Source: Candidatus Pacearchaeota archaeon
GTDB taxonomy: Archaea > Nanobdellota > Nanobdellia > Pacearchaeales > GW2011-AR1
DNA: 64,000 nt
Direction of reading: 5' to 3'
Assembly: GCA_964202455.1 (NCBI GenBank)
Contig: CAXNIJ010000001.1
Coordinates: 46,080 to 110,079 of the forward strand
Shown: one piece after another, positions 14,675-36,363 of the stretch
How the letters are laid out: each line of letters begins with the position of its first letter
Position numbering within the stretch: the stretch's first letter is position 1
Program-made: the position numbers and the translations under genes
The notes under the pieces: generated by a model
What the model saw: the letters and a program-made list of their open reading frames with translations, nothing else
Databases searched by the model: none
Told to the model about the DNA's origin: nothing

Positions 14675-15907
14675 TTATAGATACAAGGATTTATGAAGCA
14701 TCTCCTCCGCTTTTTCTAGCACTACAGGGGGAAGCATTAATTTAATCTCTCTGGTTCTTCCCTGCCTCCCTTTACTGATTACTCTAGTATTGATGAGGCC
14801 TAGCATATCAAACTCTCCAAGAATATCTGATACTCTTCTCTGTGTAAGAACCTCATTACGCGTCTTCTCACATAAATCTTGATATGCATTATAAACATCT
14901 CCCGTAAATATTTCTTCAACTTCTTTATTTTTATGGAGTGCTACTGTCGCGGCCAAAACTAATTGAAATTGTTTAGGAACTTTCTCAACGATATCTAGCA
15001 TTTTATCTTTTTCTATCTTCTGATTAGCAGTGTCTATATGTTCAACTCTAATTTTTTTCTCATTTTCTCTCTCAGTTAACTCTCCTGCAACTCTCAATAA
15101 ATCAAGTGCTCTTCGAGCATCCCCGTGCTCTCGAGCTGCATAAGCGGCGCATTTTTCTATAACTCCCTCCGCCAAAACTCCCTCTTTAAATGCCTGCAAA
15201 GATCTGATTCTGAGAATATCTTGTAATTGCAAGGCATTATATGATGGAAATACTAATTCTTCTTCACTCAGAGAACTTCTAACTCTTGGATCTATGTTAT
15301 CCATAAATGTCAGACTATTACTAATTCCAATTATACTTATTTGTGCATTCTTAAGTTCCGAATTTAATCTGGTAAGTGTATAAATAAATCTATCTGAAAT
15401 TTTTTTCACAGCTTCATCAATTTCATCAAGAATAATAATCACTACTTGTTTTTTAACATCTATAAGCTCGATAAATTTAAGATATACTTGATCTGTGGGT
15501 AGTCCTGTGGCGGGAATCGTTCCTTTTAGTTCATGAATCATCTCTGCAACGATTCTATACTCTGTGTCCGCCACCTTTTTTAATTTACAATTTACATAAA
15601 TAAATTGCAAATAATTTTCCCCCATCTCTTTTAGTTTTTCAAGGATTTTATCTCGAACATATTGTACACTTAACGTTTTTCCGCTCCCCGTATTCCCATA
15701 TACAAACAAATTACTAACTCTCTCTCCCCTTAAAGCCGGAGCAAGAATCGACGCCACTGCTTCAACTTGCGCCTCCCTATGGGTGATTTGTTCAGGAGTA
15801 TAGTTGGATTGAAGAACGGATTTATTCTTAAATAAATTATTAGATATAAAAGAACTAAAAATTTTATCCAGTTTATTCATCTCTTTTTCACCTTTGAAAA
15901 TAAACAC
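14675..15907 (-). CDS. cdc6: Orc1/Cdc6 replication initiator
   Basis: Walker A VYGNTGSGKTLS, Walker B IIILDEID, sensor regions and a C-terminal winged helix; the presumed origin lies immediately upstream. Confidence 0.95.
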   Translation of the reverse strand: MFIFKGEKEMNKLDKIFSSFISNNLFKNKSVLQSNYTPEQITHREAQVEAVASILAPALRGERVSNLFVYGNTGSGKTLSVQYVRDKILEKLKEMGENYLQFIYVNCKLKKVADTEYRIVAEMIHELKGTIPATGLPTDQVYLKFIELIDVKKQVVIIILDEIDEAVKKISDRFIYTLTRLNSELKNAQISIIGISNSLTFMDNIDPRVRSSLSEEELVFPSYNALQLQDILRIRSLQAFKEGVLAEGVIEKCAAYAAREHGDARRALDLLRVAGELTERENEKKIRVEHIDTANQKIEKDKMLDIVEKVPKQFQLVLAATVALHKNKEVEEIFTGDVYNAYQDLCEKTRNEVLTQRRVSDILGEFDMLGLINTRVISKGRQGRTREIKLMLPPVVLEKAEEMLHKSLYL

Positions 15908-16329
15908 CTTTTCTCATTATAAACATATCGCTTTTCTAAGCTTCATTTCCACTGAAGAAGAAGAAAATATAAAAGAAAAAAGACTAATTCAAACAAATTA
16001 TCTTAAAATAACAGACACCCTCATTTCCACTCGAGAATAATCTTTTTTTAATCTTCAAATCTTCAAATTAACACGAATAAATATAGATACTATATACTAT
16101 ATACTATATACTATATACTATACTATACAAAACTTTATAAAGGAAAAGAAGAGAAAGAAAAATCCCTCTATCCTTTTTAAACATTTTCTTTTTCTCCATA
16201 CGCAACCATGGGGTCACACCCCCCACAACTTCAAGACTCGTCTTCTCACCTCATAATCTTCCAGTCACACGTTCCCAAGAGTAAAAAAAACAGGCAAAGA
16301 TTTATATACAAAAGCTTTCTCCAGTACAT
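15908..16329. promoter_or_regulatory. Candidate replication origin (oriC): two ORB-like boxes plus an AT-rich tandem-repeat DUE
   Basis: TTCATTTCCACTGAAG (15942-15957) and TCATTTCCACTCGAG (16021-16035), same orientation, resemble the archaeal ORB core (reverse strand CAGTGGAAATGAA). A (TATATAC)n tandem repeat at 16086-16128 lies between cdc6 and the next gene. Confidence 0.65.
16086..16128. repeat. Heptamer tandem repeat (TATATAC)x5-6 inside the candidate origin
   Basis: actatatactatatactatatactatatactatactatac read directly. Confidence 0.8.
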
Positions 16330-16590
16330 ATGGGATTAGAAAAGAGGCCGTTAAAAGATATAATTGGAAAATTAGTAGTTACAAAAGAAGGTAGAAGACT
16401 TGGGTTTGTTAAAGATCTCAGTTTCGAAACTCGCACTGGCGAACTTATTCAATTAATTTTAAAAGACCCAACACCATACACTAGAAATCTCAACCTAGAA
16501 CTCTCTCCAAATAAAGAAGCGCTCATTCCTTACAACACAATAATCGCAATAGGAGATTTTGTCGTTATATCCGAAGAAGATTTAATCTAG
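16330..16590 (+). CDS. PRC-barrel domain protein
   Basis: 86 aa; IGKLVVTKEGRRLGFVKDLSFETRTGELIQLIL is a typical PRC-barrel signature. Confidence 0.5.
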   Translation: MGLEKRPLKDIIGKLVVTKEGRRLGFVKDLSFETRTGELIQLILKDPTPYTRNLNLELSPNKEALIPYNTIIAIGDFVVISEEDLI

Positions 16591-17437: not shown

Positions 17438-18160
17438 TCATAATCTCCCCATTTCTCCAAAATCCATAACTTCAAGCTTCTCCCCCACAACCCAAATTCT
17501 AAATTTCTTTAAATCTAATTTCCATGCAAGACCCAAATCACTATTTCGAACATCACTTCCCACACTATGCTCACTAAAACTAGGCACAACAATTATTTTC
17601 CTTCCTTCAAATTTTCCTTCTAGAAAACATTTATATTTCTCACTCTTTACTCCATCTTCCAAAACAATCGCCGGATGCGCATGCCCCATAACCCACATTT
17701 CGACTTCCTTAGAATAAATCTCTCCAAAATCTCGATCTCCATGTAAAAAGCAAACTCCATCAGTACAATAAAAATTTCTTACTTCACTATTCTCTCTAAC
17801 TAAAAATCTCTTAAGTGCATCGTGATTTCCTTGCACAATTACTATTTTCTTACATTTCTCTCCAAAAAATTCCAACAACTTTTGAAAATCCTCTCGTTCT
17901 TGTCCTAGAACTGTTCCAAAAACGTGCTTCACATCTCCAAGCAAAACAACTTCATCAACATTCCCTGTTCTAGAAAATATCTCTTCAAAATCTTCCATCA
18001 TCTCTCCAAATAACTTTCTTCCCACACCAACACCAGAAATATTTAGAGCTTCTTCATACCCCAAATGTAAATCCCCAACAACAAGTATTCTTTTTCCATC
18101 AACTTCAACAAGCAGACATTTTCCAATATATGAAATTTCAACCATTTTTCTTCCCTTCAA
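17438..18160 (-). CDS. mpe: Calcineurin-like metallophosphoesterase (MPE) co-transcribed with Lhr
   Basis: GDLHLG, GDVKH, GNHD and GHAH motifs; overlaps the 3' end of lhr by 23 nt on the same strand. Confidence 0.8.
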   Translation of the reverse strand: MKGRKMVEISYIGKCLLVEVDGKRILVVGDLHLGYEEALNISGVGVGRKLFGEMMEDFEEIFSRTGNVDEVVLLGDVKHVFGTVLGQEREDFQKLLEFFGEKCKKIVIVQGNHDALKRFLVRENSEVRNFYCTDGVCFLHGDRDFGEIYSKEVEMWVMGHAHPAIVLEDGVKSEKYKCFLEGKFEGRKIIVVPSFSEHSVGSDVRNSDLGLAWKLDLKKFRIWVVGEKLEVMDFGEMGRL

Positions 18161-20726
18161 TCGCCTTCAGGTGCAATTCATGCATCCTCTTTAAAAATGA
18201 GGCCTTGTCTTCCATCTTTATCAAGTCGCTTCTTCCCTGCATAACTAAGCTCACTCCAAAAGGAGAAACTATCGGTGTCCTAATATGTTTAACTTTCAAT
18301 TTCCCACTTTCGATCCATTTCAAAACTTCTCGAGCACGTGCAACATCCATTAAATCTTCAAACACCTCGCGCCGAGCTTCACGCAAGATCGGAAATTCAT
18401 TACTTAGTTGCTTCACAGCACGAAATAAAAATTCAGAATGTACTTGTTGCCTTCCAACACTTTTCTCTCTTCCCTTATACTGTCGCAGAATCATTAAACT
18501 CCTCCCAGCACAATGTCTAAATCTTCTCTTAAGTATATCTGTCCTCTCAATCGCTTCCTTCAATATCATCTCTAGATTTTTACTAGTCACAAATTTCAAT
18601 ATTGCTTCTTCATCTAAACTCTCTCCTGCAATAAAAAATCCATTATCTGTAATTCCTATTTCTATATCTCTGTGCTTTAGGCGCGCAGCAGCATATGCGT
18701 ACGCACGAGACAGCGAGTCATTCACTCGCCTACCAAATAAACTATGAAAAACCAAATATTCTTTATTTTCTTTAAATTTTTCTACCACCATAGTTTTGTC
18801 ATCTGGTATCTCTGCAAAATCTTCTTGTTCTTTACAGTAAGAATATATCTCTTGCGCAATTCTCTCATTACAATAAATATGGCCTCTAATAAACTGAATA
18901 CAACTTTTCTTTTCTCCTAGTCTTTCTTTCACAAGTCTTCTAAATCTCTGTATTTCCAGAGCAACGTCAAAAGAGAGGGGCAGCATCTCACTAAACCATG
19001 AAGGAATAGTGGGATTTCTAGACACATTCGCCCTCACAAAAGCTTTCATCCCTCTTGAAAAAAGAAATTGATATTTCTTTCCACCTAGAACAAATATATC
19101 TCCCCTCTTCATTCGCTCTAGAAATCCCTCATCTATCTTTCCGATCGTTTCCCCTCTCCCCTCCCCTGCCCCAACCATAACAGAAATAAATCCTTCTGCA
19201 GGAATCGTCCCAATATTCGTCATATAAAGTACTCTCGCCAGTTTTCCTTTCTTTCCTACTTGCCTAGTAACTGAATCATACCAAATCTTAGCATACACAT
19301 GTCTATGTTCAAGAGCATAATCTCCAGCTAAATAACTTACTACATCAAAAAAATCTTCTTCTGACAGTCTAGAATAACAATAACTTCTCCTAATCACTCG
19401 TAACATCTCATCTACATTCCAAATTTTACTTATTGCCATCCCAAATATCTGCTGGGCAAGAACATCAAGACAATTCATGGGAATACTTGCCCGGTCAATA
19501 TGTTTCTCAATCATCTCTTTCATTAGTATTCCACATTCAACAAGATCGTCCCTATCAAGAACCAAAAATCTTCCCTTAGGTTGACTATGTAGCTGGTGTC
19601 CTGCTCTTCCAATTCTTTGTAGTGCACGACTAACACTCTTAGGACTCTTCAATAGCACAACTAAATCAATACTTCCAATATCAATTCCAAGCTCAAGAGA
19701 TGTAGAACTGACAACAACTTTCAGCATTGATTTTCTAAGCTTATCTTCAATAATAAATCTCTCTTCTTTACTCATACTACTATGATGTGCCCCAATTTCT
19801 CCAACATATTTTCCAGGAAAATGCATATCAAGATAATGAATAATTCTCTCAGTCGCAGCACGAGTATTAGTAAATATCAAAGTAGTTTTATGCTCTTGAA
19901 TTAATTCATCAAGAAGATGATATAGTTTCTTTTGCCCCTCCACGTTTTCTGCTTCAAGAATTGTTTCTCCAGGATAATCCATTCCAATATCAATTCCTTT
20001 CAATAATTTTACTTCTGCAATATGGCATTCTCTTCCTACCCCAACAAGAAACTTTGCAATCTCTTCAAGCGGAGAGATTGTAGCACTTAATCCGATTCTT
20101 ACGGGATCAAATACACTCATACTACACAAATTCTCTAGAGCCAAGCTCAAAAACACCCCTCGTTTATTAGTCATTGCATGTATCTCATCAACAATAATAA
20201 ATTCTAGTCCTTTCACTTTTTCAACGAACTTTGGTGTAACTAAAACTATTCCCAGCGATTCAGGAGTAGTCACATAAATATGCGGCGCCTTCTTTGCATG
20301 TTTCGCGCGTTCAGCAGGAGTTGTATCTCCGGTTCTTAGACCCACACGAATCTCTTGCAATTTTATTCCCTTTCCTTCAGCAATTTTCCTTATTTCTTCA
20401 AGTGGAGCAATCAAATTTACAAAAATATCATTAGAAAGTGCCTTAAGGGGGCTTATGTAAACAGCATAAATTTTCTCCTCAAGTTCATTCTTTTCAGCAA
20501 GAGTGACAAGATAATTAAGAATTCCCAAAAATGCAGTAAGAGTCTTCGTTCCACCCGTAGGCGCACTTACTAAAATGTTTTTTCTATCCCAAATAGTCTT
20601 TACTCCATAAAGCTGCGTCAAACTAAAATCTTTAAATCTTCCAAAAAACCATTCGCTAACGAGTGGATGCAAGATACCTCGCACAGCACTAGAATCATGC
20701 GGTTCCATAAATGTTATTTCGCTCAT
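18138..20726 (-). CDS. lhr: Lhr-type SF2 DNA helicase (Lhr-core)
   Basis: 862 aa; motif I APTGGTKT, DExH box IIVDEIHAM, Lhr-like N-terminus (PLVSEWF...LTQLY), and a C-terminal WH/domain-4 extension. Confidence 0.9.
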   Translation of the reverse strand: MSEITFMEPHDSSAVRGILHPLVSEWFFGRFKDFSLTQLYGVKTIWDRKNILVSAPTGGTKTLTAFLGILNYLVTLAEKNELEEKIYAVYISPLKALSNDIFVNLIAPLEEIRKIAEGKGIKLQEIRVGLRTGDTTPAERAKHAKKAPHIYVTTPESLGIVLVTPKFVEKVKGLEFIIVDEIHAMTNKRGVFLSLALENLCSMSVFDPVRIGLSATISPLEEIAKFLVGVGRECHIAEVKLLKGIDIGMDYPGETILEAENVEGQKKLYHLLDELIQEHKTTLIFTNTRAATERIIHYLDMHFPGKYVGEIGAHHSSMSKEERFIIEDKLRKSMLKVVVSSTSLELGIDIGSIDLVVLLKSPKSVSRALQRIGRAGHQLHSQPKGRFLVLDRDDLVECGILMKEMIEKHIDRASIPMNCLDVLAQQIFGMAISKIWNVDEMLRVIRRSYCYSRLSEEDFFDVVSYLAGDYALEHRHVYAKIWYDSVTRQVGKKGKLARVLYMTNIGTIPAEGFISVMVGAGEGRGETIGKIDEGFLERMKRGDIFVLGGKKYQFLFSRGMKAFVRANVSRNPTIPSWFSEMLPLSFDVALEIQRFRRLVKERLGEKKSCIQFIRGHIYCNERIAQEIYSYCKEQEDFAEIPDDKTMVVEKFKENKEYLVFHSLFGRRVNDSLSRAYAYAAARLKHRDIEIGITDNGFFIAGESLDEEAILKFVTSKNLEMILKEAIERTDILKRRFRHCAGRSLMILRQYKGREKSVGRQQVHSEFLFRAVKQLSNEFPILREARREVFEDLMDVARAREVLKWIESGKLKVKHIRTPIVSPFGVSLVMQGRSDLIKMEDKASFLKRMHELHLKAIEGKKNG

Positions 20727-21203: not shown

Positions 21204-21536
21204 ATGCCTCAAATTTCCCAACAAAAAAAAGACAGGATTACCGAGCAGATTCTCCACCACCTCTTCACAGTATCTCCCTCATCTATTTTCACAGTCCAGA
21301 TAAGTAAGGAGATTGCCAGAGACGAAGAATTCACTCTCGCCCTTCTCAAAGACCTTCAGAAAAAGAAATTAATCATAGAGATTGCAAAGAACAAAGACGG
21401 CACAGACTATAAAAAGCGTAGACGCTGGCGCCTTTCAAACGAAGTTTATGATATCTACAAAAAGCAACAAGTCAATCTCAAATCCTTTCCCTCAACAGAT
21501 TCAACTATCAAAGACAATTATCAAGACAAAGAGTAA
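21204..21536 (+). CDS. Putative wHTH DNA-binding protein
   Basis: 110 aa; a helix-turn-helix-like segment ISKEIARDEEFTLALLKDLQKKKLI followed by a basic wing. Confidence 0.3.
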   Translation: MPQISQQKKDRITEQILHHLFTVSPSSIFTVQISKEIARDEEFTLALLKDLQKKKLIIEIAKNKDGTDYKKRRRWRLSNEVYDIYKKQQVNLKSFPSTDSTIKDNYQDKE

Positions 21537-21590: not shown

Positions 21591-22361
21591 ATGGATCCCA
21601 TTAAAGAAGCTTTCACGAGGGCAAAACAAGACATTCAAGAACTAAAAGATCAGTTAACCCTATTATCTCAAGAGACTCAGTTTCTTAGGCAAACTCTCGA
21701 TGATATCCTCTTTCATCGGCAGCTCCAGCAAGCTTTTCCATCAGACAGACAGACAGACCAACACTCCAGCACACTTCAAACTCCAAAGTCTACCTCGATT
21801 CCAGCACAAACCTCTCAAAACCCATCAATCAAGCAGGAAACTCCAGCACTCCAGCACATAGATTCCAGCACTCCAGCACAAAATAACCCTTTAAAACCTC
21901 TAAAAGACCAGTTTTCAGTATTCTCCACTGGAAATGAGGGGGTTCCAGCAGACAGACAGACAGACAGACAGACAGACCAGCAGACACAAAATAGCGAGAA
22001 AATCGACTTAGAAACCCTTCATGAGCATACCTTTCAGCACATAACTGACGCTATAGATACCCTAGATCAAGCAAAAAAAGAAGTTCGTTTAAAATTTAAA
22101 CGCTTTACTAAACAAGAAATGGAAGTTTTTGGAGCAATATATTCCTACGAAGAGCGGGGACTTATCGTCGATTACGCTCTTCTTGCGCAAAAACTTGGCC
22201 TGACCGAGAGTTCTATCCGCGATTATGTTCAAAAACTCATCAAAAAAGGCGCACCGATTGTAAAAACTAAGGAAAACAATAAGAGGATCCTTCTTAAAAT
22301 CGATCCTAACCTCAAAAAAATCGCATCTTTACAAACAATTCATCAATTAAGAGAACTCTAA
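21591..22361 (+). CDS. Coiled-coil / low-complexity protein with C-terminal wHTH; contains two (CAGA)n microsatellites
   Basis: 256 aa; DRQTDRQTDQQT encoded by (CAGA)7 at 21949-21976 and (CAGA)4 at about 21742-21758; the C-terminal 90 aa are HTH-like and paralogous to the C-terminus of 22735..23376. Confidence 0.45.
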   Translation: MDPIKEAFTRAKQDIQELKDQLTLLSQETQFLRQTLDDILFHRQLQQAFPSDRQTDQHSSTLQTPKSTSIPAQTSQNPSIKQETPALQHIDSSTPAQNNPLKPLKDQFSVFSTGNEGVPADRQTDRQTDQQTQNSEKIDLETLHEHTFQHITDAIDTLDQAKKEVRLKFKRFTKQEMEVFGAIYSYEERGLIVDYALLAQKLGLTESSIRDYVQKLIKKGAPIVKTKENNKRILLKIDPNLKKIASLQTIHQLREL

Positions 22362-22504
22362 TTCGTTTAACCGAACAACTTCTATAAAAGCTCTAGCTGA
22401 CACTCACTTTCAAAATTTTTTTCTTTTACCATCGCTGTTTTTTTCATAACTCTTACTCTCAAGTCATTCATTTTTGGTCAAAATCCCCCTTTTTGCACTT
22501 TTTC

Positions 22505-22805
22505 TCCTCTCACTTTTTGACCGCATCAGGAAGATCGTTCATTTGCTCCCATCTTCCCTCACTTTTGGATACTTTCCTTCACTTCTGGAAGGTTTTTTAT
22601 ACGTCGAGAATCAAATATTCTCGATCGTACTCAAAATCTCCTCACTTTTGGAAGGTTTTTGATACCGAAAAAGGCATAAACCGGTAAAAAATGAGAACCA
22701 CAACTCTCACTTTTCACTATTTTTGCTCATTTTATCATGAAACTTCGTTTAATCTATCATTAACACGAACTCGCTTACTTTTCCCAACCCTCACTTTTGC
22801 GTATT
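22505..22805. repeat. Iteron-like array of at least 6 copies of CTCACTTTTGG, including a 24-bp imperfect direct repeat
   Basis: Copies near 22510, 22557, 22578, 22640, 22709, 22790; cacttctggaaggttttttatac / cacttttggaaggtttttgatac are 63 bp apart; lies between convergent wHTH genes. Confidence 0.6.
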
Positions 22806-23376
22806 TTGCGAGTTTTTCCCTTATTTCTTCAGGTACAAAGACCCTCTTTTTCCCTGTTTTCTCACTTATTTCCTCTAGTAGTCCTTCACTCTTCTGTTTT
22901 ATAGCATTTATCTGTCCTCTTATAGTAGATTTCTCTTTACCCAAAAGCAAGGCTAAATCTTCATAACTTAACTTCAAATCGCTATTCATCAGAGTCATTA
23001 TCAACAGTCTTTCATTTGCGGTTAAACCTTTCAAAATATCATAAATATTGCCTGTTTGAACAGGCATCTGAACAGCTTTTTCAACACCATAATCAGCTGT
23101 CTGTTTGCCTAAAACAGGCAATTTTTCAAACAACTGTTGATGTTTTTCATCATTTTTCAAAGATTCAACTTCTTCATGCAAAGCACCAAGATCAGTTTTA
23201 ATCGTCGCTATTTCAGATTTTAATGAAGAAAGTAAAGAAAACACCTGTTTGTCTTGTCCATCAAGGTGTTTGATCCACTTTCCAACCACATCAATATCAT
23301 TTTTAACTGCAGAGAAGCCTTGGCGAATTTCATCACTAGAATTATTTTCCTTCTTTTTGAATAACCAGTTGAACAT
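22735..23376 (-). CDS. Coiled-coil + C-terminal wHTH putative regulator
   Basis: 213 aa; C-terminus LTANERLLIMTLMNSDLKLSYEDLALLLGKEKSTIRGQINAIKQK has the same architecture as 21591..22361. Confidence 0.45.
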   Translation of the reverse strand: MFNWLFKKKENNSSDEIRQGFSAVKNDIDVVGKWIKHLDGQDKQVFSLLSSLKSEIATIKTDLGALHEEVESLKNDEKHQQLFEKLPVLGKQTADYGVEKAVQMPVQTGNIYDILKGLTANERLLIMTLMNSDLKLSYEDLALLLGKEKSTIRGQINAIKQKSEGLLEEISEKTGKKRVFVPEEIREKLAKYAKVRVGKSKRVRVNDRLNEVS

Positions 23377-24358
23377 ATCTATATTACTCGTTCGAGTATT
23401 TATAAACCTTTCGGTATCTCCTCACTTTATCGTCGATAAATAGACGTCAAAAATCAACAAAAAGTCTGACTAAAAATAGAGAAAAACACTCTAAAACACC
23501 AAACAACATCATTCAAACACCTTAGATGCTTAGTCAAACACTCAACATCTTACTTTAAACACCCGTTCAAACATCCCCAAACACCTTCAACCTAGATCAA
23601 ATTTTACCAATCATCGTCGACAAATTTTGGCAAAACCCCTAAACTAATCTATGGGGCAAAAAGTCTACACTTTACTATTGTTCAAATATCTGCCTTTTTT
23701 CTCTCAAAGAATAAAGAGTTTCATAGCCCGCTTTTTAATAAACTCCTTGCTTCCAAAGCAGAATTTCAAAAAAATTCATCCAGATATAAGTTTTTAAGTT
23801 TTCACAAGACCTCAACTCTATGAATCTTCCTTAACGTTGACCTTTAGACTCAGAATATCAGATATATCTTCAAATTTTTAGGGGAACAAGTACCAAAGAT
23901 CTACAAAAAGCACTAGATTATCACCAAAGCAGCCGTTCTTTCATAACAACACTTCCCCTTAGCGTTGACCTAGTCTCCAAAACACTACATGTTCGTGTTT
24001 AGAAGAGGTTCTTTCACAAAGAAACGCTCTTTCAAACATTCCGACCATCTCAAAACACTCATCCAAACATCAATTTTAATCTAGATAAACCCAAAGAGTT
24101 AAATACTTCCACAGGTTTAATCAATTATGCCTAAAAAAGAAGCAGACCTCACAGCGATTTTATCCATTATAGCAGGTTTTATCATCCTAATCTGGCCCAA
24201 CATACTAGGCATAGCAGTAGGTCTTTTCCTTCTAATCACTGGAATACTAGATTTAGCAAGAAAAACCAAGTGATTTCTCCAGTTTAATTCTTTTCCTTTC
24301 GCTAGTAATTTTCAGCATAAAAGAAACCGCAAGATTTATATACTTCTTACGTATATCC

Positions 24359-24700
24359 ATGTGTATGAAAATAAGTAAGGAAGATATTATCAGGATAGGA
24401 AAAGGTTTTGGAGGAGAACTGCGAAACGATGCAAGTATAGAGTTTGCTTTGGAAAAGCAGGAAAATGTCAAACTCGGAGAGTATAAGAAGCTAGCTTATT
24501 TGATTAGAGCAATAGTAATTGATCATCCATTCACAGATGGAAACAAAAAAACGGCTGCATACATCGTTTTTGTTTTCGCCGAACAATTCAATAAACAAGT
24601 AGATCTTGAGCTTATTAAAGAGCAAATGATTTCAATTGCAAGTAAAAACATCAATAGTATTCGAGCAATCGAGGAGAGACTAAAAAATGTCCTTAACTGA
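24359..24700 (+). CDS. doc: Doc/Fic-family toxin
   Basis: HPFTDGNKKTA matches the Doc motif HxFx(D/N)GNKR; 113 aa. Confidence 0.8.
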   Translation: MCMKISKEDIIRIGKGFGGELRNDASIEFALEKQENVKLGEYKKLAYLIRAIVIDHPFTDGNKKTAAYIVFVFAEQFNKQVDLELIKEQMISIASKNINSIRAIEERLKNVLN

Positions 24701-24905
24701 ACAAGAAATACAGAGAATATTCAAAAAATACAAAGAAGTATTTGAAGAAATGGAGCACTATGACCAAACCCGCGAAAAGCTTTGGGAAAAGAAACGTATC
24801 GACATCACACTTACTCATCGTCTCATTAAGAAGTTAAAGGCCCTAAGCAAACAAACAGGCAAACCCATTTCTCATATTATAGAGGAAGCAGTTACTAAGT
24901 TATAG
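24687..24905 (+). CDS. Ribbon-helix-helix (CopG-like) putative antitoxin partner of Doc, encoded downstream of the toxin
   Basis: 72 aa; RIDITLTHRLIKKLKALSKQTGKPISHIIEEAV is RHH-like; 14-nt overlap with doc. Confidence 0.45.
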   Translation: MSLTEQEIQRIFKKYKEVFEEMEHYDQTREKLWEKKRIDITLTHRLIKKLKALSKQTGKPISHIIEEAVTKL

Positions 24906-25067
24906 TCCCAGCCAACACTTCCAAACACCTGTTTGCCCCGTTTATCGTCTATACATTTTCTAATCCCAACACCTACCAATACCTCTGTTTTCTCCTCCTT
25001 TCCCACCCATTCCCCCTCCATTTTAAACACCTATTTGCCCGTTTGTCCTAAACCATAACTTCAAACC

Positions 25068-25096
25068 AAGTGAGGCGCGAAGCGCCGAACGCGCCC
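25068..25096. repeat. GC-rich twin-hairpin element gtgaggcgcgaagcgccgaacgcgcccga (family B core), copy 1
   Basis: Identical 29-mer at 26899-26927; both are preceded by aacttcaaa and followed by a TATA-like box and a gene start. Confidence 0.7.
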
Positions 25097-25137
25097 GACC
25101 ACCTAAATATATAAAAATCGTTCTAAGAATAAGAGTT

Positions 25138-25467
25138 ATGGACGAAAAATCTCCCATCGAATTAATTCTCTTAGAATACCGGTGCAGAGATTTCGACGAT
25201 CGTACAATTATCTTAAGAATTAAGAATGCTCCCTTTGGGGCGAGCAGAATTCAGCAAGTTGCATGGGGCGTGAGTCCAAGTTTTCCTGCAGGAAATCCTC
25301 CTGTTTTCCCAATATACTATGAAGTGACAGGGTTCAGTCAAGAAGGAAATAGTCGTGTGATGAGATTGCCCCATAGCGGAGAACTAGTAGATTACAAGCC
25401 CTCATTTGAAGAAGCATTCAAGAGAGCATATGCGTTAGCAAAGGAACGGGCTTTGGAATATACCTGA
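25138..25467 (+). CDS. Hypothetical cassette protein
   Basis: 109-aa ORF preceded by the family-B repeat and a TATA-like box. Confidence 0.4.
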   Translation: MDEKSPIELILLEYRCRDFDDRTIILRIKNAPFGASRIQQVAWGVSPSFPAGNPPVFPIYYEVTGFSQEGNSRVMRLPHSGELVDYKPSFEEAFKRAYALAKERALEYT

Positions 25468-25717
25468 CCATTTTCACATGCTCCAGAATATGATCCTTCA
25501 AGAGCACACATATTTGATAGAACCTCTTTCGGAAATCTTTCCCCCTCAGATTCAGACGATCCTTGTCATAAGCTCTGGTATACACCTATTTGGTATCCTG
25601 AAATATAATTTAGATGTTCGCACAAGCTACATTAACCGAAGTATTGGCACATTTTAAGGGATTTCAGAGTGTTTTTTGAGGCGAAAGAGTTAAATAGACT
25701 CAGAAAATGAATAAATC

Positions 25718-26080
25718 ATGACTTGGACTACCCTCACTATCTCAAATAATAAAGAGTATGCCTTATTAGCAGAACAATATTTTAAGGAAGATCGTCGTAG
25801 GGAACCTGGAGAATATACGTCTTCAGGTTGGTTAAGAAGGCAAGCGAGATTAGGGATCTATAGTCTATTAATGAATTGCTTATCCGATCCGACTCATTTT
25901 ATGAAAGTAACTCAATTTATCAATTCAAATTCGATTGGAGAAGTAGTTAGATTGGTCGAAACGTTTAGAAATGGTCATCAAGAGAATTTAGCGACATATT
26001 TCGGTTGGAGTGATTTAAGTACAATTCAAAGAAAGATAGACTTAAGGAATGAGTTACTTGCTAAACTGTTTCAAGCGTAA
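25718..26080 (+). CDS. Hypothetical cassette protein
   Basis: 120-aa ORF followed directly by the intercassette repeat. Confidence 0.4.
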   Translation: MTWTTLTISNNKEYALLAEQYFKEDRRREPGEYTSSGWLRRQARLGIYSLLMNCLSDPTHFMKVTQFINSNSIGEVVRLVETFRNGHQENLATYFGWSDLSTIQRKIDLRNELLAKLFQA

Positions 26081-26158
26081 TCTTCCTCCCTTTTCTTAAA
26101 ACTTTCAGCATAAAGGAAAAACCGAAATATTTATATATCAGTTATACATCGAGTATAC

Positions 26159-26392
26159 ATGGCAGAAGAATCAACTATCCTCTTAGACAAGAAAGTAATT
26201 GAGCAACTTAAAGAAGCGAAAGAATATCCTCGCCAGACATACAATGAACTTCTTAATAAAATGACTCATCTTTTCATAACTCTCAAAAAACAAAAAGAGA
26301 GACAATACGACCGTTTTCTCTTTGAAATACAAAAGAAAAAGATGAGAGAACTCTGGGATAATGAATATGATGAAGTTTGGGAGAAAGTATAA
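26159..26392 (+). CDS. Putative antitoxin (same family as 259..465 and 28400..28618)
   Basis: TILLDKKVIEQLKEAKEYPRQTYNELLNKM; overlaps the MazF ORF by 32 nt. Confidence 0.6.
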   Translation: MAEESTILLDKKVIEQLKEAKEYPRQTYNELLNKMTHLFITLKKQKERQYDRFLFEIQKKKMRELWDNEYDEVWEKV

Positions 26393-26687
26393 GTTTGGCG
26401 ACGTTATTTTAGCGTCGGTCCAGTATACAGATACATCGGAGATTAAAACTCGTCCTGCACTGGTGCTCTTTGAAGAGCATGAAAATATTGTAATTGCAGG
26501 GATAACGAGTAATCCTCATATGCAAGGTATTTCTCTTACTAAACAAGAAGGAATGGTCGCAGAGAGTATTGTTAAACTGAATTATATTATGACTCTCACA
26601 GAATTAATGGTCAAGAAGTATCTCTTCACGATTTCAGAAGAGAAAAAACAACAAATTAAGGATGAATTTTGCAAGAAGCTACAATAA
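26361..26687 (+). CDS. mazF: MazF/PemK-family toxin (endoribonuclease)
   Basis: GDVILASV...TRPALVL...IVIAGITSN matches the PemK/MazF fold signature; 108 aa. Confidence 0.85.
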   Translation: MNMMKFGRKYKFGDVILASVQYTDTSEIKTRPALVLFEEHENIVIAGITSNPHMQGISLTKQEGMVAESIVKLNYIMTLTELMVKKYLFTISEEKKQQIKDEFCKKLQ

Positions 26688-26964
26688 AATTTGAATCCAA
26701 ACCCTTACGAAAAGATCATGAACGGGGATTCATTGTTCCAGACAAGCTTACATCTAGCTTGGATCTTAAAGGAGGTGAAAAATTGCTTTCGCCCTCTTGA
26801 AATATTAGGGATTTTTAGAGGTTGTTTTAAACAGCTGTTTGTTCGTTTAATCATTCAAAAACCTGTCCCCTTTCCTAGAACAATAACTTCAAATCTCTGT
26901 GAGGCGCGAAGCGCCGAACGCGCCCGATCGAAAGAATTAAATATATCGGAGCATACAAATAGAT

Positions 26965-27183
26965 ATGACTTATCAGGTAGTTGTGGGAATTCTATTATCT
27001 GTTCTTGGTCTTCTTGTTTGTATTTTCCCAAAGTCATTTTCGGGGTTCCTTAGTACTAGTAAAAATATTTTGGGAAGAAATTTTAAAGAAAAGTTGGGTG
27101 AAAGCAAAGGAAAAATAATTACGATTGTCTGGAGTATAATTATCTCAATATTGAGTCCAATTGCCATCTTTACATCGAAATAG
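26965..27183 (+). CDS. Small membrane protein, hypothetical
   Basis: 72 aa with 2 TM helices; preceded by family-B repeat copy 2 plus an AAATATAT box. Confidence 0.3.
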   Translation: MTYQVVVGILLSVLGLLVCIFPKSFSGFLSTSKNILGRNFKEKLGESKGKIITIVWSIIISILSPIAIFTSK

Positions 27184-27370
27184 AATCAATTTAGAAGATA
27201 ATTTGTAAAAGGGCGCATAATCTACCTTAGACGAACCTTTAGAGCTCTTTTTCGCCCCAAAAGTTCGCTTTTTTATTTGTTGACATTAACTTTGTTGTAT
27301 TGCCCTATAAACAACGATCTTTTTGAGTTTTGAGGGAAAGATTTAATAATATTCATCAAGCCAGAGAGAT

Positions 27371-27736
27371 ATGGACAGTGCACCATTTATACATCCTCAA
27401 CCAGACTTAGGAAAATATCTTGCAAGTTTTGTAGGCGGTACCAGCAGATATCGAGAAGCACGTTCTTCCGATAACAACGTTGTTGTGGGAGAATTTATGA
27501 TTGAACATTTGAAAAGAAAATTGCCTCTAGAACAGCTTGAGGCAATAGTACGAGAATATTTGCTAAGAAGGGGATTCCTAGATGTCACAGAAGGATCAGA
27601 AGAGACGACATCAGATATCAATTCAAGCTCTCGAAAGTATTTTCATCCCACCTATTCTCAGACTCATAATTGGAAGGTATTAGTCAACGTTCCTGGTTCT
27701 CGTAAAGACATTTCGGTAAGTTGGTCCATTTACTAG
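27371..27736 (+). CDS. Hypothetical cassette protein
   Basis: 121-aa ORF; intercassette repeat immediately downstream (27770-27808). Confidence 0.4.
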   Translation: MDSAPFIHPQPDLGKYLASFVGGTSRYREARSSDNNVVVGEFMIEHLKRKLPLEQLEAIVREYLLRRGFLDVTEGSEETTSDINSSSRKYFHPTYSQTHNWKVLVNVPGSRKDISVSWSIY

Positions 27737-27769
27737 AAAAGCAATATTAGTGCCTGAATATTATTAACT

Positions 27770-27808
27770 TCTCTTAAAACTTTCAGCATGCTCAAAGAGT
27801 TCGTTTAA
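27770..27808. repeat. Intercassette repeat family A (TCTCTTAAAWC-tttcagca-N-caaagagttcGTTTAA); this is the reference copy
   Basis: Related copies at 24296-24328, 26093-26124, 28277-28316, 28339-28368, 28886-28924, 29432-29465 and partially at 113-124. Confidence 0.65.
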
Positions 27809-27870
27809 TTATATAAAAAACTATTCTTCCCAACACAAATATTTATATATCTCTAGAATACCTCAATATA

Positions 27871-28266
27871 ATGGGAAAAACACAAAGACTTCGACATATT
27901 CAGCCAACTCATGGAGACAGGAATTATTTTATTTATGATGATGACAAAGGAAATGAGGTTTTTGCCTTTCCAACACCCATAGGTTCTCCAACAATATTTT
28001 CTGCCAGAGACGAGAATGGAGAGTCATTTAATGAGGCTGCAGTTAGAAGCGAATTAATTTCCCGTGCCAGGTTTATAGAAAGAACAGAAGGATTACATCT
28101 TAGAACCATCAACTCATATACTGCTATTCGCGTACATTTTGGAAATTTTCCCACTATAAAGACTAGTGATAGGCCCTCTTTAGAGGTAGATTTAGAAATA
28201 TATGGTGTACAATTTTACCAATCCACATTTTTAGATCGCAAATCTACTAAAAAAAGACCAGCGTAA
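27871..28266 (+). CDS. Hypothetical cassette protein
   Basis: 131-aa ORF; TATA-like box about 30 nt upstream; repeat downstream. Confidence 0.4.
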   Translation: MGKTQRLRHIQPTHGDRNYFIYDDDKGNEVFAFPTPIGSPTIFSARDENGESFNEAAVRSELISRARFIERTEGLHLRTINSYTAIRVHFGNFPTIKTSDRPSLEVDLEIYGVQFYQSTFLDRKSTKKRPA

Positions 28267-28399
28267 TCTTTCTGCTCTCTCTTAAATCTTTCAGCACATT
28301 CAAAGAGTTCGTTTAATATAAACTTAATCTTCTTCCTTTCTCTTAAATCTTTCAGCACAAAGGAAAAGTTTATAAACTATAACAAATTATATAATTGAT

Positions 28400-28618
28400 A
28401 TGGAACAAACAACTATTCAAATAAGTAAAACTCTCTTGGAACAGCTAAAGTTACGAAAGATGACTAAAAAAGAGAGCTATGAAGGAATTATTTGGGATTT
28501 GCTTGAAGATACAATGGAGTTATCCGATGAAACAAAACGCGCGATCGAAGAAGGAAGAAAGCAGATACTTGAAGAAAAAGTTGTTTCTTTTGAAGATTTG
28601 AAACGAGAGTTCCAGTAA
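28400..28618 (+). CDS. Putative antitoxin (third paralogue)
   Basis: TIQISKTLLEQLKLRKMTKKESYEGIIWDLLED; the stop lies 1 nt before the RelE start. Confidence 0.6.
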   Translation: MEQTTIQISKTLLEQLKLRKMTKKESYEGIIWDLLEDTMELSDETKRAIEEGRKQILEEKVVSFEDLKREFQ

Positions 28619-28619
28619 T

Positions 28620-28874
28620 ATGCACTACCAGATCTCTTTTTCTGAACAAGCAGCCAACTTTATTAGAAAATTAGACAAATCTCAAAGAGAACGAATTTTC
28701 GCCGTTCTCGAAAGAATCAAAATTCGTCCAGAAGATTTCGTTGAAAAACTAGTTGGAGAACAGGGGTACAAGCTCCGCATAGGAGATTATCGATTATTTT
28801 TAGATATTCAACAGAATACTATTATTATCTTCGTCGTAGAAGTCAGGCATCGAAAAAATGCGTACAAAAAATAA
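28620..28874 (+). CDS. relE: RelE/StbE-family toxin
   Basis: 84 aa; ...KLRIGDYRLFLDIQQNTIIIFVVEVRHRKNAY is a RelE-like C-terminus. Confidence 0.8.
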   Translation: MHYQISFSEQAANFIRKLDKSQRERIFAVLERIKIRPEDFVEKLVGEQGYKLRIGDYRLFLDIQQNTIIIFVVEVRHRKNAYKK

Positions 28875-28920
28875 TACTCTCCCTTTCTCTTAAATCGTTC
28901 AGCATCTCCAAAGAGTTCGT

Positions 28921-29199
28921 TTAAACTGCCCAATAGTCTGGAATATCAAATCCATCATCATTCAGTGATTTTTTTAATTCAGGATCATTCCATTCACAAA
29001 CAATAAGCTGAAACTGAGAAATGGAAGGTGAATAAAGACAACGAACATCAGCAAGAACAGCATTTCTACCTCTACTTTCTAAAAAAAGCAAAAAATCTAG
29101 ATTTGTTTCATATATTTTACCTTTAGTATTTTTAACAAAAGCCAAAGAAAAAGGAACGTCTCCACTAGAATCAGCAAGATACGGATTTTCATCCCCCAA
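28921..29199 (-). CDS. Hypothetical protein. The frame continues upstream to ATG 29406 through an in-frame TAA (29296-29298), so this is a possibly disrupted gene of about 160 aa.
   Basis: Translation of the minus strand gives MKEVHEDYLLLPGMSLFKKCNVLVYNCKNIRDFVDN*DRIETTSAPFFSRAKEYNGLAIINF...; an overlapping ORF 29097..29309 in another frame is probably spurious. Confidence 0.3.
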   Translation of the reverse strand: MGDENPYLADSSGDVPFSLAFVKNTKGKIYETNLDFLLFLESRGRNAVLADVRCLYSPSISQFQLIVCEWNDPELKKSLNDDGFDIPDYWAV

Positions 29200-29731
29200 T
29201 ATTGCACGAAGATTATTTGCAAAGTTGATAATTGCGAGCCCATTATATTCTTTGGCGCGACTAAAGAAGGGCGCAGAAGTTGTTTCAATTCTATCTTAAT
29301 TATCAACAAAGTCTCGAATGTTTTTACAATTATACACTAGAACATTACATTTTTTAAATAGAGACATTCCAGGCAATAAAAGATAATCTTCGTGTACTTC
29401 TTTCATAATAACTTTACACAAATAGATGTTTTTAAAACTAACCAATATTCAAAGGGTTCGTTTAACTCCAATTTCCTCCTTCTCTGCCTCTGAATTTCAC
29501 TCAAGATTCATCTTCCATAACCCTTAAATACCAAGGTAATTTAGGTATATTAACACCTCTTTTCCCCAGAAGAGGACGTTTCATCACCTTTTTGATCGAT
29601 GGAGCCTCCTCTTATGGGTTTAATATTCTACGATTATACCTGCAAACAGCTGTTTACGAAACGTTTTTAAACAAACATTTTCTTAAACAGCTGTTCAGAA
29701 GGAAAAATATTCTTTCTCGCAAAAAATTACA

Positions 29732-34172: not shown

Positions 34173-34260
34173 GCCTCTATAGCTCAGCGGTAGAGCACCA
34201 GTTTCGTACCGATATATGCGAAGAAACTGGGGGTCGGGGGTTCAATCCCCCCTAGAGGCT
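34173..34260 (+). tRNA. tRNA-Thr (anticodon CGU) with a 16-nt intron at the canonical 37/38 position
   Basis: Acceptor GCCTCTA/TAGAGGC; D arm GCTCAGCGGTAGAGC; anticodon stem CCAGT/ACTGG; loop TTCGTA|intron 34209-34224|A; T arm GGGGG TTCAATC CCCCC; no encoded CCA. Confidence 0.8.
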
Positions 34261-34674: not shown

Positions 34675-36363
34675 ATGAAAGAAACAATTATCGCCCTCCT
34701 TGCAAAAACTCTCAAAAAAGAAGAGCAATTTGTAGCTGCGCTAGTAGAAGTTCCCCAAGATTCAACCAATGGAGACTATTCATTTCCTTGCTTTTCTCTA
34801 ACTAAAGAATTAAAAAAAAGTCCAATGGAAATAGCTCAAAATCTCTCATCAAATATCAAACTTCCTAAAGAACTAGAAAAAATAGAGGCCAAAGGCTCAT
34901 ATCTTAATTTCTTTATTAATAGAAACCTTTTAGCAGTGCAATCTCTAAAAGAAATATTAAAACAAAAAGATAAATACGGTTCACAGAAAAATAAGTGTAA
35001 AGTGGTCATAGAATTCCCAAGCCCGAATACAAACAAACCTCTCCATTTAGGTCATGCAAGAAACATAATTTTAGGTCAAGCAGTAACAAACATCTTACAG
35101 TTTATGGGGGATAATTTGCAAGTTACAAATCTCTATAATGACCGTGGCGTACATATTTGCAAATCTATGGTGGCATATGAAAAATTCGGAAAAGGAGACT
35201 CTCCAGAAAAATCAAAGAGAAAGTCAGACCATTTTGTCGGAGACTATTATGTCAAATTTGCACAAGAAGCAAAAGAAAATAAGCAGTTTGAAGAAGAAGC
35301 GCAAAAAGCTCTTAAAAAATGGGAAGAGGGTGACAAAAAAACACTCGCTCTCTGGAAAAAAATGAATTCCTGGGCATTTAAAGGTTTTGAAGAGACTTAT
35401 CAACTTTTTAATCTAAAAATAAAGCACAATTATTATGAATCAGATATCTACAATAAGGGGAAGGAAATTGTTTTTGAAGGATTAAAAAAAGGAATATTAA
35501 AGAAAAAAGAAGATGGTGCTTTCTTTATCGACTTAACTCCCCACGATATGGGTGAAAAAATTCTACTACGTGCAGATGGAACATCGATATACACCACACA
35601 AGACATTTATCTTGCACTTTTAAAATACAAAGAATTCAAGTTTGATAAATCCATATATGTAAGTGCATCAGAACAAAATTATCATTTCAAAGCACTTTTC
35701 AAAATACTCGAGTTGTTAGGTTATCCTTGGGCAAAAAATCTCATTCATTTAAGTTACGGTATGGTAAATTTAGAGTCTGGAAGAATGAAATCAAGAGAAG
35801 GAAACGTAGTCGATTCGGATAATTTAATTGCAGATATGAAATTAATGGCAAATGAAGAAATAGAGAAGCGCCATCAAGATATTTCAGAAAAAGAAAAAAA
35901 CCACCGTTCTCAAGCAATAGTCATGGCCGCGCTTCGTTATTATTTTCTCAAAGTAGATAAAACGAGAGATGTAACTTTTAAGCCAGAAGAATCTCTTAAA
36001 TTCGAAGGCGATACTGGCCCATATCTTTTATACACTTATGCTCGTGCACAAAGCATTCTAGAAAAAGCCAAGAAGGGGAAAAAATCACTTAAAATTCCAG
36101 CGCTAACCGATAAAGAAAAACAACTTTTTATACATCTAACTAAGTTTCCAGAGGTAGTTGCCTATGCACACTCTTCTCTAGCACCCAACTTTATTGCAAA
36201 CTATTCATTCCAATTAGCACAGTTATTTAACGAGTTCTATCATTCTCACCAAGTAATCGGCTCCCCAGAAGAAGCATTTCGTGTAGAACTCGTAAAGGCA
36301 TTTTCTCAAGTTCTCAAAAATGCACTATCTCTTCTAGAAATATCAACTCTAGATAAGATGTAA
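34675..36363 (+). CDS. argS: Arginyl-tRNA synthetase
   Basis: 562 aa; HIGH motif PNTNKPLHLGHARN; class I Rossmann core and a DALR-like anticodon-binding C-terminus. Confidence 0.95.
   Translation: MKETIIALLAKTLKKEEQFVAALVEVPQDSTNGDYSFPCFSLTKELKKSPMEIAQNLSSNIKLPKELEKIEAKGSYLNFFINRNLLAVQSLKEILKQKDKYGSQKNKCKVVIEFPSPNTNKPLHLGHARNIILGQAVTNILQFMGDNLQVTNLYNDRGVHICKSMVAYEKFGKGDSPEKSKRKSDHFVGDYYVKFAQEAKENKQFEEEAQKALKKWEEGDKKTLALWKKMNSWAFKGFEETYQLFNLKIKHNYYESDIYNKGKEIVFEGLKKGILKKKEDGAFFIDLTPHDMGEKILLRADGTSIYTTQDIYLALLKYKEFKFDKSIYVSASEQNYHFKALFKILELLGYPWAKNLIHLSYGMVNLESGRMKSREGNVVDSDNLIADMKLMANEEIEKRHQDISEKEKNHRSQAIVMAALRYYFLKVDKTRDVTFKPEESLKFEGDTGPYLLYTYARAQSILEKAKKGKKSLKIPALTDKEKQLFIHLTKFPEVVAYAHSSLAPNFIANYSFQLAQLFNEFYHSHQVIGSPEEAFRVELVKAFSQVLKNALSLLEISTLDKM

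Follow-up and report, generated by a model that had tools for sequence, protein, structure and literature searches.

Introduction

Plasmids of the P1 and F type carry arrays of iterons on both sides of the rep gene, with the origin iterons upstream and the control ('inc') iterons downstream. A comparable arrangement was analyzed here in a 64,000-nucleotide stretch of the chromosome of a Candidatus Pacearchaeota archaeon (contig CAXNIJ010000001.1, positions 46,080 to 110,079; this whole stretch is referred to as the window), where an array of short direct repeats, the CTCACTTT/AAAGTGAG boxes, lies between two convergent genes for winged-helix proteins. These genes are designated w213 (213 amino acids) and w256 (256 amino acids), and a small open reading frame (ORF) of 110 amino acids upstream of w256 is designated w110. 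The window represents a low-GC (approximately 35%) chromosome of a DPANN archaeon.

As in the plasmids, the winged-helix gene w213 is bracketed by two helically phased arrays of the same orientation, and the beginning of the downstream array coincides with the 3' end of the gene. In contrast to the plasmids, the boxes measure 8–13 bp and not 17–22 bp, the two arrays differ from each other in sequence, and the spacing is irregular instead of following a regular interval of about 22 bp. The w213 protein is Lrs14/MarR-like and carries a coiled coil, whereas plasmid Rep has two winged helices; furthermore, the locus is a chromosomal core locus, and no unwinding element adjoins it.

In Pyrococcus, a bound cluster of origin recognition boxes (ORBs) was described within dp1, a gene adjacent to oriC (PMC1904270). 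This Thermococcales cluster of ORBs and mini-ORBs resembles the present locus in that initiator elements are placed in or beside coding sequence, a few kilobases from a cdc6-adjacent origin, throughout an order, and the ORB within w256 is its analogue. The AAAGTGAG boxes, however, lack the TTCC/GAA core, and Cdc6 binding was shown in Pyrococcus, whereas the ORB here is known from sequence. The Sulfolobus oriC3/WhiP system (PMC4010727) also has a winged-helix gene beside non-ORB repeats in a replication-related region, but no Cdt1/WhiP homology was detectable here, and an AT-rich candidate origin lies 6.5 kb away. Partition centromeres (P1 parS, F sopC, and archaeal SegAB sites) share with the locus a repeat cluster located 3' of a gene for a DNA-binding protein and near an origin; they differ from it in that no ParA/SegA-type ATPase is annotated here within 10 kb and the fold is neither that of ParB nor ribbon-helix-helix.

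Each of the closest systems fails at least one defining feature, namely repeat length and regularity, a Rep or ParA partner, the ORB core, or autonomy of the replicon. The repeats are a conserved, previously undescribed element, probably with a control function; no fewer than 78 related DPANN archaea carry it in an identical chromosomal position, only a few kilobases away from the replication origin. No description of the locus was found in Rfam 15 or in the literature searched.

Conservation and Strand Constancy of the Boxes

For comparison, 80 loci (L001–L080) were taken from species-level genomes of Pacearchaeota and Nanoarchaeota encoding a relative of w213, together with two further genomes (L081 and L082). 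Across the 80 loci, 161 copies of AAAGTGAG, the reverse complement of CTCACTTT, were found on the w213-sense strand in the 500 nt past the w213 stop (4.1 per kb), whereas the remaining 1.0 Mb contained 16 copies on both strands (0.02 per kb). This corresponds to an approximately 200-fold enrichment at the array site, with constant strand. The possibility that the motif is a compositional artefact spread over the genome, which the first-pass annotation of this DNA had asked to be checked, is contradicted by these densities.

Typical loci carried two to six copies within 300 nt of the w213 stop. The consensus across the 80 loci was AAAAGTGAG[A/G]G with a conserved core of 8–13 nt, and the 8-mer was invariant while its flanks could not be aligned across 78 genomes. 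The spacer between the convergent stops of w213 and w256 ranged from 150 to 760 nt (median 290 nt), and the GC content of the array was 32–41%.

In the window, boxes start on the + strand at 22403, 22509, 22558, 22578 (variant TTCACTTC), 22641, 22706, and 22790. In the 64 kb, CTCACTTT is present in seven copies, none of which lies on the - strand or outside 22403–23428. The exact 11-mer CTCACTTTTGG is present in two copies only (22558 and 22641), with two one-mismatch copies (22509 and 22790), and the common core of all copies is CTCACTT(T). The total of nine CTCACTT copies in the window is ordinary (4.4 expected); the unusual part is their clustering and one-strandedness, eight of them being located on the + strand within 22403–23421.

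The repeated motif noticed in the first-pass annotation is therefore real, with eight of nine copies on one strand within 22403–23428 and enrichment in the 80 loci. The direct repeat pair of 24 bp reported there was also recovered, at 22579–22602 and 22642–22665 (63 nt apart, 92% identity); the duplication to which it belongs is absent from the closest relatives, L001 and L002. As for the seventh copy, it exists, but at 23421–23428 and not at 23413, and this copy, located upstream of the w213 promoter, was rejected as a member of the array as it is not conserved in other genomes. A further copy at 22861, which encodes S-E-K, is probably incidental. The coordinates of all features are collected in Table 1.

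One box is formed by the last conserved codons of w213. The invariant C-terminal K-V-R-V was written AAA GTG AGR GTT in 71 of 71 genomes (AAA GTG AGG GTT in the window), while GTG accounts for 18% of the valine codons elsewhere in w213 genes. Since a minority valine codon is nevertheless fixed in every one of these genomes, the box is selected as nucleotides and not only as amino acids.

Table 1. Features of the w110–w256–w213 locus; positions and strands are those of the window.
Feature	Position	Strand	Remarks
w110, small ORF upstream of w256	21204–21536	+	Present in 75/80 loci
w256, 256 aa: N-terminal coiled coil, long low-complexity linker, C-terminal winged helix	21591–22361	+	Convergent with w213
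Full Orc1/Cdc6 ORB TTCTCCACTGGAAATGAGGGGGTTCCA in w256 coding sequence	21921–21947	+	Best ORB match in the window; G-run towards the array
Palindrome TTCGTTTAACCGAA	22362–22375		Directly past the w256 stop
AAAGTGAG box array (CTCACTTT on +)	22403–22797	-	Window counts, 80-locus conservation, ~10-bp phasing
Two T7 runs (22416–22422, 22438–22444), likely w256 terminators	22416–22444	+	55–83 nt past the w256 stop
Strand-specific hairpin: AAAGUGAG, 8–10 bp stem, loop, stem, CUGAUG	22518–22569	-	5' flank is the box 22558–22565
63-nt tandem duplication with two boxes	22579–22665	-	24-nt repeat pair, lineage-specific
T5 (22668–22672) and T6 (22686–22691), likely w213 terminators	22668–22691	-	44–67 nt past the w213 stop
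w213, 213 aa: N-terminal MFxWLFKK, long helix, linker, winged helix, basic tail	22735–23376	-	
Box in the last conserved w213 codons (K-V-R-V)	22790–22797	-	Codon-level constraint
w213 promoter: BRE-like CCGAAAGG and TATA TTTATAAATA	23397–23414	-	Ends ~20 nt before the ATG, leaderless type
Second array, GGTGTTT on - (AAACACC on +)	23494–23640	-	Upstream of the w213 promoter

Spacing of the Boxes

Box spacings ranged from 7 to more than 300 nt. The distances between adjacent boxes peaked at 33–35, 43–45, 53–55, 62–65, 72–74, 81–85, and 92–95 nt, with the strongest period at 10.0 nt (Rayleigh z 27); for all pairs, the strongest period was 10.25–10.5 nt (z 51). When one random spacing per genome was drawn, the median z was 11.6, compared with 7.1 for the 95th percentile of the null distribution of the maximum over all periods. 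Taken modulo 10.5, most all-pair distances differed from a whole turn by no more than about 3 nt in either direction, and in the window five of seven spacings deviated from whole turns by no more than 2 nt. The repeats had earlier been described as evenly spaced; the spacing is in fact irregular but helically phased.

Runs of A and runs of T in the spacer shared the period of the boxes, whereas GGA and TGA outside the boxes barely did. Overlapping words inflate the z values of the A-run controls, and among all words tested the boxes showed the strongest normalised periodicity. As a period of 10–10.5 nt belongs to B-DNA and not to RNA, it implies that the boxes share one face of the duplex, which is probably curved.

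A coding explanation of the repeats was rejected: the spacer ORFs were not conserved, no 3-nt period was present in the box spacings in the same Rayleigh analysis, and mini-ORFs of the MEK type kept no constant frame. The + strand ORFs that the track predicted across 22474–22966 had been considered probably spurious, and this was borne out, two of them being not conserved and the third being an antisense shadow of w213. Shine-Dalgarno mimicry was likewise rejected, as only 4 bp were complementary to the canonical anti-Shine-Dalgarno sequence in a hand alignment.

Second Array and ORB

The second array comprised five to nine copies of GGTGTTT per locus, 100–250 nt upstream of w213. Upstream of w213, GTGTTT was present in 283 copies compared with six on the other strand (19-fold enriched, 66 loci), and its spacings clustered at 10–12, 20–22, and 31–32 nt. 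In the window, GGTGTTT copies are located at 23494, 23515, 23557, and 23579. The centre of the second array is a double palindrome, GGTGTTTAAACAGCTGTTT, preceded by the palindrome GTCGACGATA; at 23428–23442 the window reads TTTATCGACGATAAA. In several loci, very AT-rich DNA lies just beyond this array. Because it is located upstream of the TATA box, the second array is a DNA element, and because it is phased too, the locus does use phased DNA arrays.

The B recognition element (BRE) and TATA box of w213 were conserved in all loci inspected. As a separate observation, most loci carried a recurring element, GCCTTTATAnGGCTTAAAAnGCC, approximately 25 nt long and clamped by G/C at intervals of about 10 nt, on the upstream side of the w213 TATA box; it was not obvious in the window's own promoter. 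It also occurred in the 3' part of the spacer (about 16 loci) and within the coding sequence of w256, immediately 5' of the ORB, and the short inverted repeats flanking it differed by genome (TTGCC/GGCAA, ATTGC/GCAAT, or GGCT/AGCC).

The ORB within w256 was present at the same position in about 74 of 78 loci, 0.44 kb from the box array. It has the form TTTCCAnnGGAAAT-GA-GGGGGTTCC, contains the full TTCC...GAA dyad core, and encodes the conserved central w256 peptide S-x-G-N-E-G-V-P-T. Its codons were fixed (TCC in 73/73, GGG in 69/71, and GTT in 72/73 cases), and the residue at the middle of the dyad varied (T, S, I, or K). Directly after the ORB, a conserved (ACAG)n run at 21945–21993 encodes DRQTDRQTD.

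Flanking Proteins and the Proposed Nucleoprotein Complex

More than 2000 homologs of w213 were found, at 55–83% identity, in metagenome-assembled genomes of Pacearchaeota, Woesearchaeota, and Nanoarchaeota. The full-length AlphaFold model was poor (predicted local distance difference test, pLDDT, 57); in it, a helix spanning residues 12–77 was predicted. When the C-terminal domain was modelled alone from 90 sequences, a pLDDT of 85 was reached. The best match of this domain model among solved structures (Foldseek) was AbfR2 of the Lrs14 family (E 1.8e-4, 25% identity), followed by MarR and ArsR/SmtB regulators. At the sequence level, the match of the w213 profile to AbfR2 (PDB 6cmv) was weak (E 0.011), the NCBIfam Lrs14 model reached only E 0.48, far under its cut-off, and the Lrs14 family lacks the N-terminal coiled coil that w213 carries.

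The w256 gene was downstream of and convergent with w213 in 79 of 80 loci. The winged-helix domains of the two proteins were homologous according to hhalign (89%, E 2e-6), although BLASTP of w213 against w256 was not significant; the earlier description of convergent neighbours with paralogous winged-helix domains is upheld by this result. No signal of Rep, Cdt1/WhiP, or ParB was found in w213 or w256, for which Pfam and NCBIfam gave weak generic helix-turn-helix matches only, and in the same two databases no family match was found for w110, the putative third winged-helix ORF.

The interpretation preferred here, to which about an even chance is assigned, is that the array is a helically phased protein-binding DNA array belonging to an origin-proximal module. 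The CTCACTTT/AAAGTGAG repeats would be sequence-specific protein boxes, predicted to be read on the duplex as direct repeats on one helix face, in an array running from the last conserved w213 codons through the spacer between the convergent genes. The most likely binders would be the paralogous winged-helix proteins w213 and/or w256, presumed to dimerise through the long N-terminal helix of w213 and the coiled-coil-like segment of w256. With a long flexible linker, one such dimer could bridge two boxes on the same face at variable distances. Several dimers, helped by phased A-tracts that presumably curve the DNA, may build a compact nucleoprotein complex, which would form part of a module together with the second phased array and the ORB in w256. 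This module may govern or arrange the region around the origin, by way of replication control, tethering, or segregation, and would not be the origin of a replicon itself.

Several observations support a duplex array, foremost the helical phasing of the boxes, whose period recurs in the A-runs and T-runs, together with the location of the central spacer between likely terminators. The enrichment and strand constancy of the boxes are accompanied by nucleotide selection inside coding sequence; the motif is not enriched elsewhere in about 1 Mb, as expected for a dedicated site; and an ORB lies within half a kilobase. The second array is phased at 10–11 nt in a place where no sense transcript is expected. 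In addition, the modelled w213 domain resembles regulators that bind double-stranded DNA, and the w256 domain is predicted by homology to be of the same kind.

Other observations weigh against this interpretation. Copy number (1–6) and the order of box sub-types differ between genomes, and the box spacings come from related genomes, so they are not fully independent. Periodicity of A-tracts at 10–11 nt is common in archaeal genomes, and the phasing was evaluated within these loci, against random spacings. Proteins of the Lrs14, MarR, and ArsR families usually bind palindromes as dimers and not 8-bp direct repeats. We infer both the binder, which was chosen for its adjacency and fold, and the function of the complex. 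Finally, a duplex model leaves unexplained the single-strand use suggested by a covarying hairpin that shares one of the boxes.

A Hairpin in the Spacer and the RNA Alternative

In most genomes a box leads directly into the hairpin, whose two complementary stem strands enclose a loop and are followed by CUGA(U/G)G. A seed of 25 hand-picked sequences, from which the covariance model R1 was built, showed a 10-bp helix with double changes at seven of ten pairs, 94% of cells paired, frequent G.U pairs, and an invariant G.U at the base. Of 81 sources, 53 gave exactly one strong match (E < 1e-3), which was located in this spacer and on the w213-sense strand in every case, and no match was found elsewhere in 0.67 Mb. 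The match in the window scored 56 bits (E 3e-10), with a minimum free energy of -15 kcal/mol. The box of the hairpin was AAAAUGAG instead of AAAAGUGAG in 8 of 53 cases. The frequent G.U pairs indicate that the stem acts in single-stranded form, with the polarity of the w213 sense and most simply in an RNA, and the compensatory changes point to a single-stranded, probably RNA, use of the box sequence.

The main rival explanation, possible but rather unlikely in our estimation, is accordingly an RNA platform, that is, a w213-sense transcript of the spacer and of the 3' end of the w213 mRNA. In such a transcript the AAAGUGAG boxes would be sites in single-stranded RNA, the hairpin would be a kink-turn (k-turn) or box C/D-like element of the L7Ae type, and the RNA would regulate w213 or titrate a factor that reads the boxes. 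In its favor, besides the covarying hairpin found once per genome on one strand, the 5' flank of the hairpin is the same 8-mer as in the other boxes, and its position 4 likewise alternates between G and A. The order of box sub-types and of further blocks is also kept along the spacer, and a short hairpin followed by a U5 block is present near its 3' end. L7Ae is universal in archaea (PMC5539422), which can be counted for this explanation as well.

The closure of the hairpin, 5'-RUGA ... CUGA-3' beside a G.U pair, can form tandem sheared G.A pairs, which is the geometry of the non-canonical stem (NC-stem) of the k-turn/box C/D motif (PMC5061560). In L028 and L033 a textbook k-turn was observed, with a 4-bp CUGA/UCAG C-stem and a 3-nt bulge. 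The GA/GA pairs and NC-stem are conserved, but the C-stem was seen in these two loci only, and the window folds with another outer helix. The part corresponding to the C box reads RUGAG(G) compared with RUGAUGA, differing at positions 5 and 7, and the part corresponding to the D box reads CUGA. The approximately 27 nt between the two are paired with each other, leaving no room for a guide, and C'/D' boxes are absent. Compared with the L7Ae-bound k-turn/box C/D RNAs (PMC5061560, PMC5539422), the hairpin shares the RUGA/CUGA closure beside a G.U pair, but it involves one box only and is without C'/D' boxes, guide-length spacers, a Rfam match and, mostly, the C-stem. No Rfam family, those of the C/D type included, matched 22200–24200 at permissive settings or the window and 17 loci at gathering thresholds.

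The roughly 10-bp phasing of boxes and A-tracts speaks against the RNA platform, as does the absence of consensus structure beyond the hairpin: RNAalifold applied to 19 longer sequences recovered the main hairpin helix only. A second structured domain 3' of the hairpin, which had seemed to show local covariation by eye, was rejected on that ground. The idea that each box is a C box with its own D box was also rejected, as GA partners with a supporting helix were near background and YUGAK was not enriched beyond one per hairpin; the other boxes thus have no D-box/UGA partner above background. A likeness to RNase P RNA, based on CR-I/CR-V-like strings, was dropped because none of the models gave a match and the purine content of the RNA is too high for extensive folding.

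Transcription itself is a further point. Oligo-T terminates archaeal transcription, and the T5 and T6 runs of w213 stand between its stop and the hairpin in the w213 sense. The oligo-T runs of both genes bracket the central 270 nt, which contain the hairpin and four boxes and are for this reason probably a transcriptionally quiet zone. With hairpin and boxes placed between likely terminators, an RNA would depend on read-through or on initiation within the spacer, where no clear promoter for a w213-sense RNA was found.

Two further words were noted in the same region. An element of the form TYCGK-N3-7-MCGR was present within 60 nt of the w256 stop in 30 of 78 loci, with looser versions in most. 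The word GTTCGnnTTAA (extended form AAAGTTCGTTTAA) was about 20-fold over-represented, with 372 copies in 0.73 Mb; in the window, GTTCGTTTAA is located on the + strand at 22083, 26841, 27799, 28307, 28915, and 29456, and its reverse complement TTAACCGAAC at 22367. When this word was tested as a promoter or terminator, only a 2:1 bias towards the 120 nt after same-strand stops was obtained. The same word makes up the KVRVN tail codons of w213, and it gives rise to a local hairpin at 22745–22779.

Relation to the Replication Origin

A classical, probable oriC candidate is the spacer upstream of cdc6 (window 15908–16330), which has a GC content of 22–25%. It contains ORB-like TTTCCACTG sites in the same orientation at 15943 and 16021, a TATAC tandem repeat at 16084–16125, and, at 16258 and 16317, TCCAGT sites that are weak and inverted; in L081, the equivalent spacer holds an inverted ORB pair. 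At third codon positions, the GC skew of the + strand changed from -0.38 (2.7–23.4 kb) to -0.19 (24.3–64 kb) in the window, independently of gene orientation. This step was located at the boundary between the region upstream of w213 and the adjoining gene island, not at the cdc6 spacer, and a step in the same direction was observed in L081 and L082 (around position 10000). As an origin locator, GC skew was nevertheless rejected: the step is present in three genomes, but no clean sign change was seen in the window, and 20–64 kb is too short.

It is improbable, in our view, that the array is a component of a replication origin, with the boxes as accessory initiator sites (either degenerate half-ORBs for Orc1/Cdc6 or iterons for a WhiP-like winged-helix initiator, w213 or w256), replication starting at or next to the locus, and the hairpin serving as a single-stranded DNA signal upon unwinding. 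The conserved ORB nearby would fit this explanation, as would the resemblance of its 3' half, GGAAATGAGGGGG, to the box variants AAAATGAGGG and AAAGTGAGGG, the position of the skew step in the three genomes, and the AT-rich stretches and palindromes upstream of w213 in several loci. A precedent is given by Sulfolobus oriC3, an ORB-less origin with WhiP as a winged-helix initiator (PMC4010727). However, the array, at the GC content given above, is not an unwinding element, whereas an AT-rich tract with inverted ORB-like sites stands beside cdc6 at 15.9–16.3 kb. The boxes lack the TTCC/GAA core of ORBs, neither protein gave a Cdt1/WhiP or Rep signal, the skew in the window shifts in size but not clearly in sign, and only a single ORB is present at the locus. 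The first-pass classification as a replication- or partition-type array therefore holds in part: the ORB at 0.44 kb and the cdc6-adjacent oriC at 6.5 kb agree with it, while no Rep or ParA is found nearby and the spacer is not AT-rich.

That the array has no sequence-specific function, being either a slippage or duplication by-product of the w213 3' end or curved, histone-positioning DNA, appears very improbable. Local duplications do occur (63 nt in the window, duplicated coding 3' ends in L012 and L073), and A-tracts in the spacer are phased generally; on the other side stand the invariant 8-mer amid unalignable flanks, the codon-level constraint, and a normalised periodicity stronger in the boxes than in any other word tested.

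Gene Neighborhood

In two distant genomes examined with 10-kb flanks, the gene order was identical to that of the window. The common order is a variable small-gene island, DUF3096, w213, w256, w110, Lhr, a phosphoesterase, a 145-amino-acid ORF, a PRC-barrel ORF, a spacer, Cdc6, and the DNA polymerase D subunits DP1 and DP2 (PolD), with the array located between w256 and w213. Lhr was present within the 4-kb flanks of 62 loci. In the window, the replication and repair core genes comprise Orc1/Cdc6 (14675–15907, - strand), followed by PolD DP1 and DP2, and the Lhr helicase at 18138–20726; Mre11/Rad50-like genes and FttA are located farther along. A tRNA-Arg (TCG) gene of 88 nt, long enough for an intron, was also noted at 34173–34260 (+), adjoining the arginyl-tRNA synthetase gene at 34675–36363.

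The proposal of the first-pass annotation that the array marks an integrated plasmid or virus, as its origin or its partition site, suggested by direct repeats beside genes for DNA-binding proteins and compatible with a variable toxin-antitoxin cassette island starting just upstream of w213, is essentially excluded, since in at least 78 genomes the locus belongs to the chromosomal core and is syntenic, with the order w110–w256–array–w213 kept in 75–80 of 80 beside Lhr, Cdc6, and PolD, w213 is as conserved across its homologs as a core gene, the annotated neighbors include no integrase, Rep, or ParA, and a triple-box scan of viral contigs returned 50 matches, all in unrelated coding tandem repeats and none with a w213 or w256 homolog. 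No ParA, SegA, ParM, or TubZ nucleoside triphosphatase was found among the genes annotated within 10 kb on either side in two genomes or among the scanned genes of the window, in a region where many small ORFs are unannotated.

The island itself (24127–29700) consists mostly of toxin-antitoxin genes, including Fic/DOC with a ribbon-helix-helix partner, MazF/PemK, and ParE. Ahead of both MazF/PemK and ParE stands a small ORF whose match to DUF7557 is weak and below threshold. It is punctuated by a 58-nt repeat (CTCTCTTAAAnCTTTCAGCA...CAAAGAGTTCGTTTAA) at 26078, 27756, 28264, 28325, and 28872. No integrase was seen in the island, and its content differed between genomes while its position beside w213 was kept. 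The array had also been suggested to be a regulatory hub for this cassette island, but nothing was found that links it to island regulation.

Significance

A broader proposal, which we put forward as speculative and unlikely to be correct in full, is that the w110–w256–w213 block, the two phased arrays, and the ORB form a replication-control or segregation centre of the Pacearchaeota chromosome. In it, coiled-coil Lrs14-like winged-helix proteins on 8-bp boxes beside an Orc1/Cdc6 site would take the place of ParB/SegB or of Orc1 alone; replication may even start beside w213, at the GC-skew step, and not in the cdc6 spacer, and the hairpin would be a single-strand signal of this machinery.

DPANN archaea are not easily cultured, and to our knowledge almost nothing is known about how the replication of their chromosomes starts and is controlled or how these chromosomes are segregated. 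The locus offers a concrete handle on DPANN replication, comprising the AAAGTGAG and GGTGTTT words, three small proteins, an ORB, and a hairpin, which together occupy less than 3 kb beside the gene cluster of the origin. Both the DNA and the proteins are of a size suited to direct binding assays in vitro, and the hairpin and box words are usable as markers of the origin region in fragmentary metagenome assemblies.

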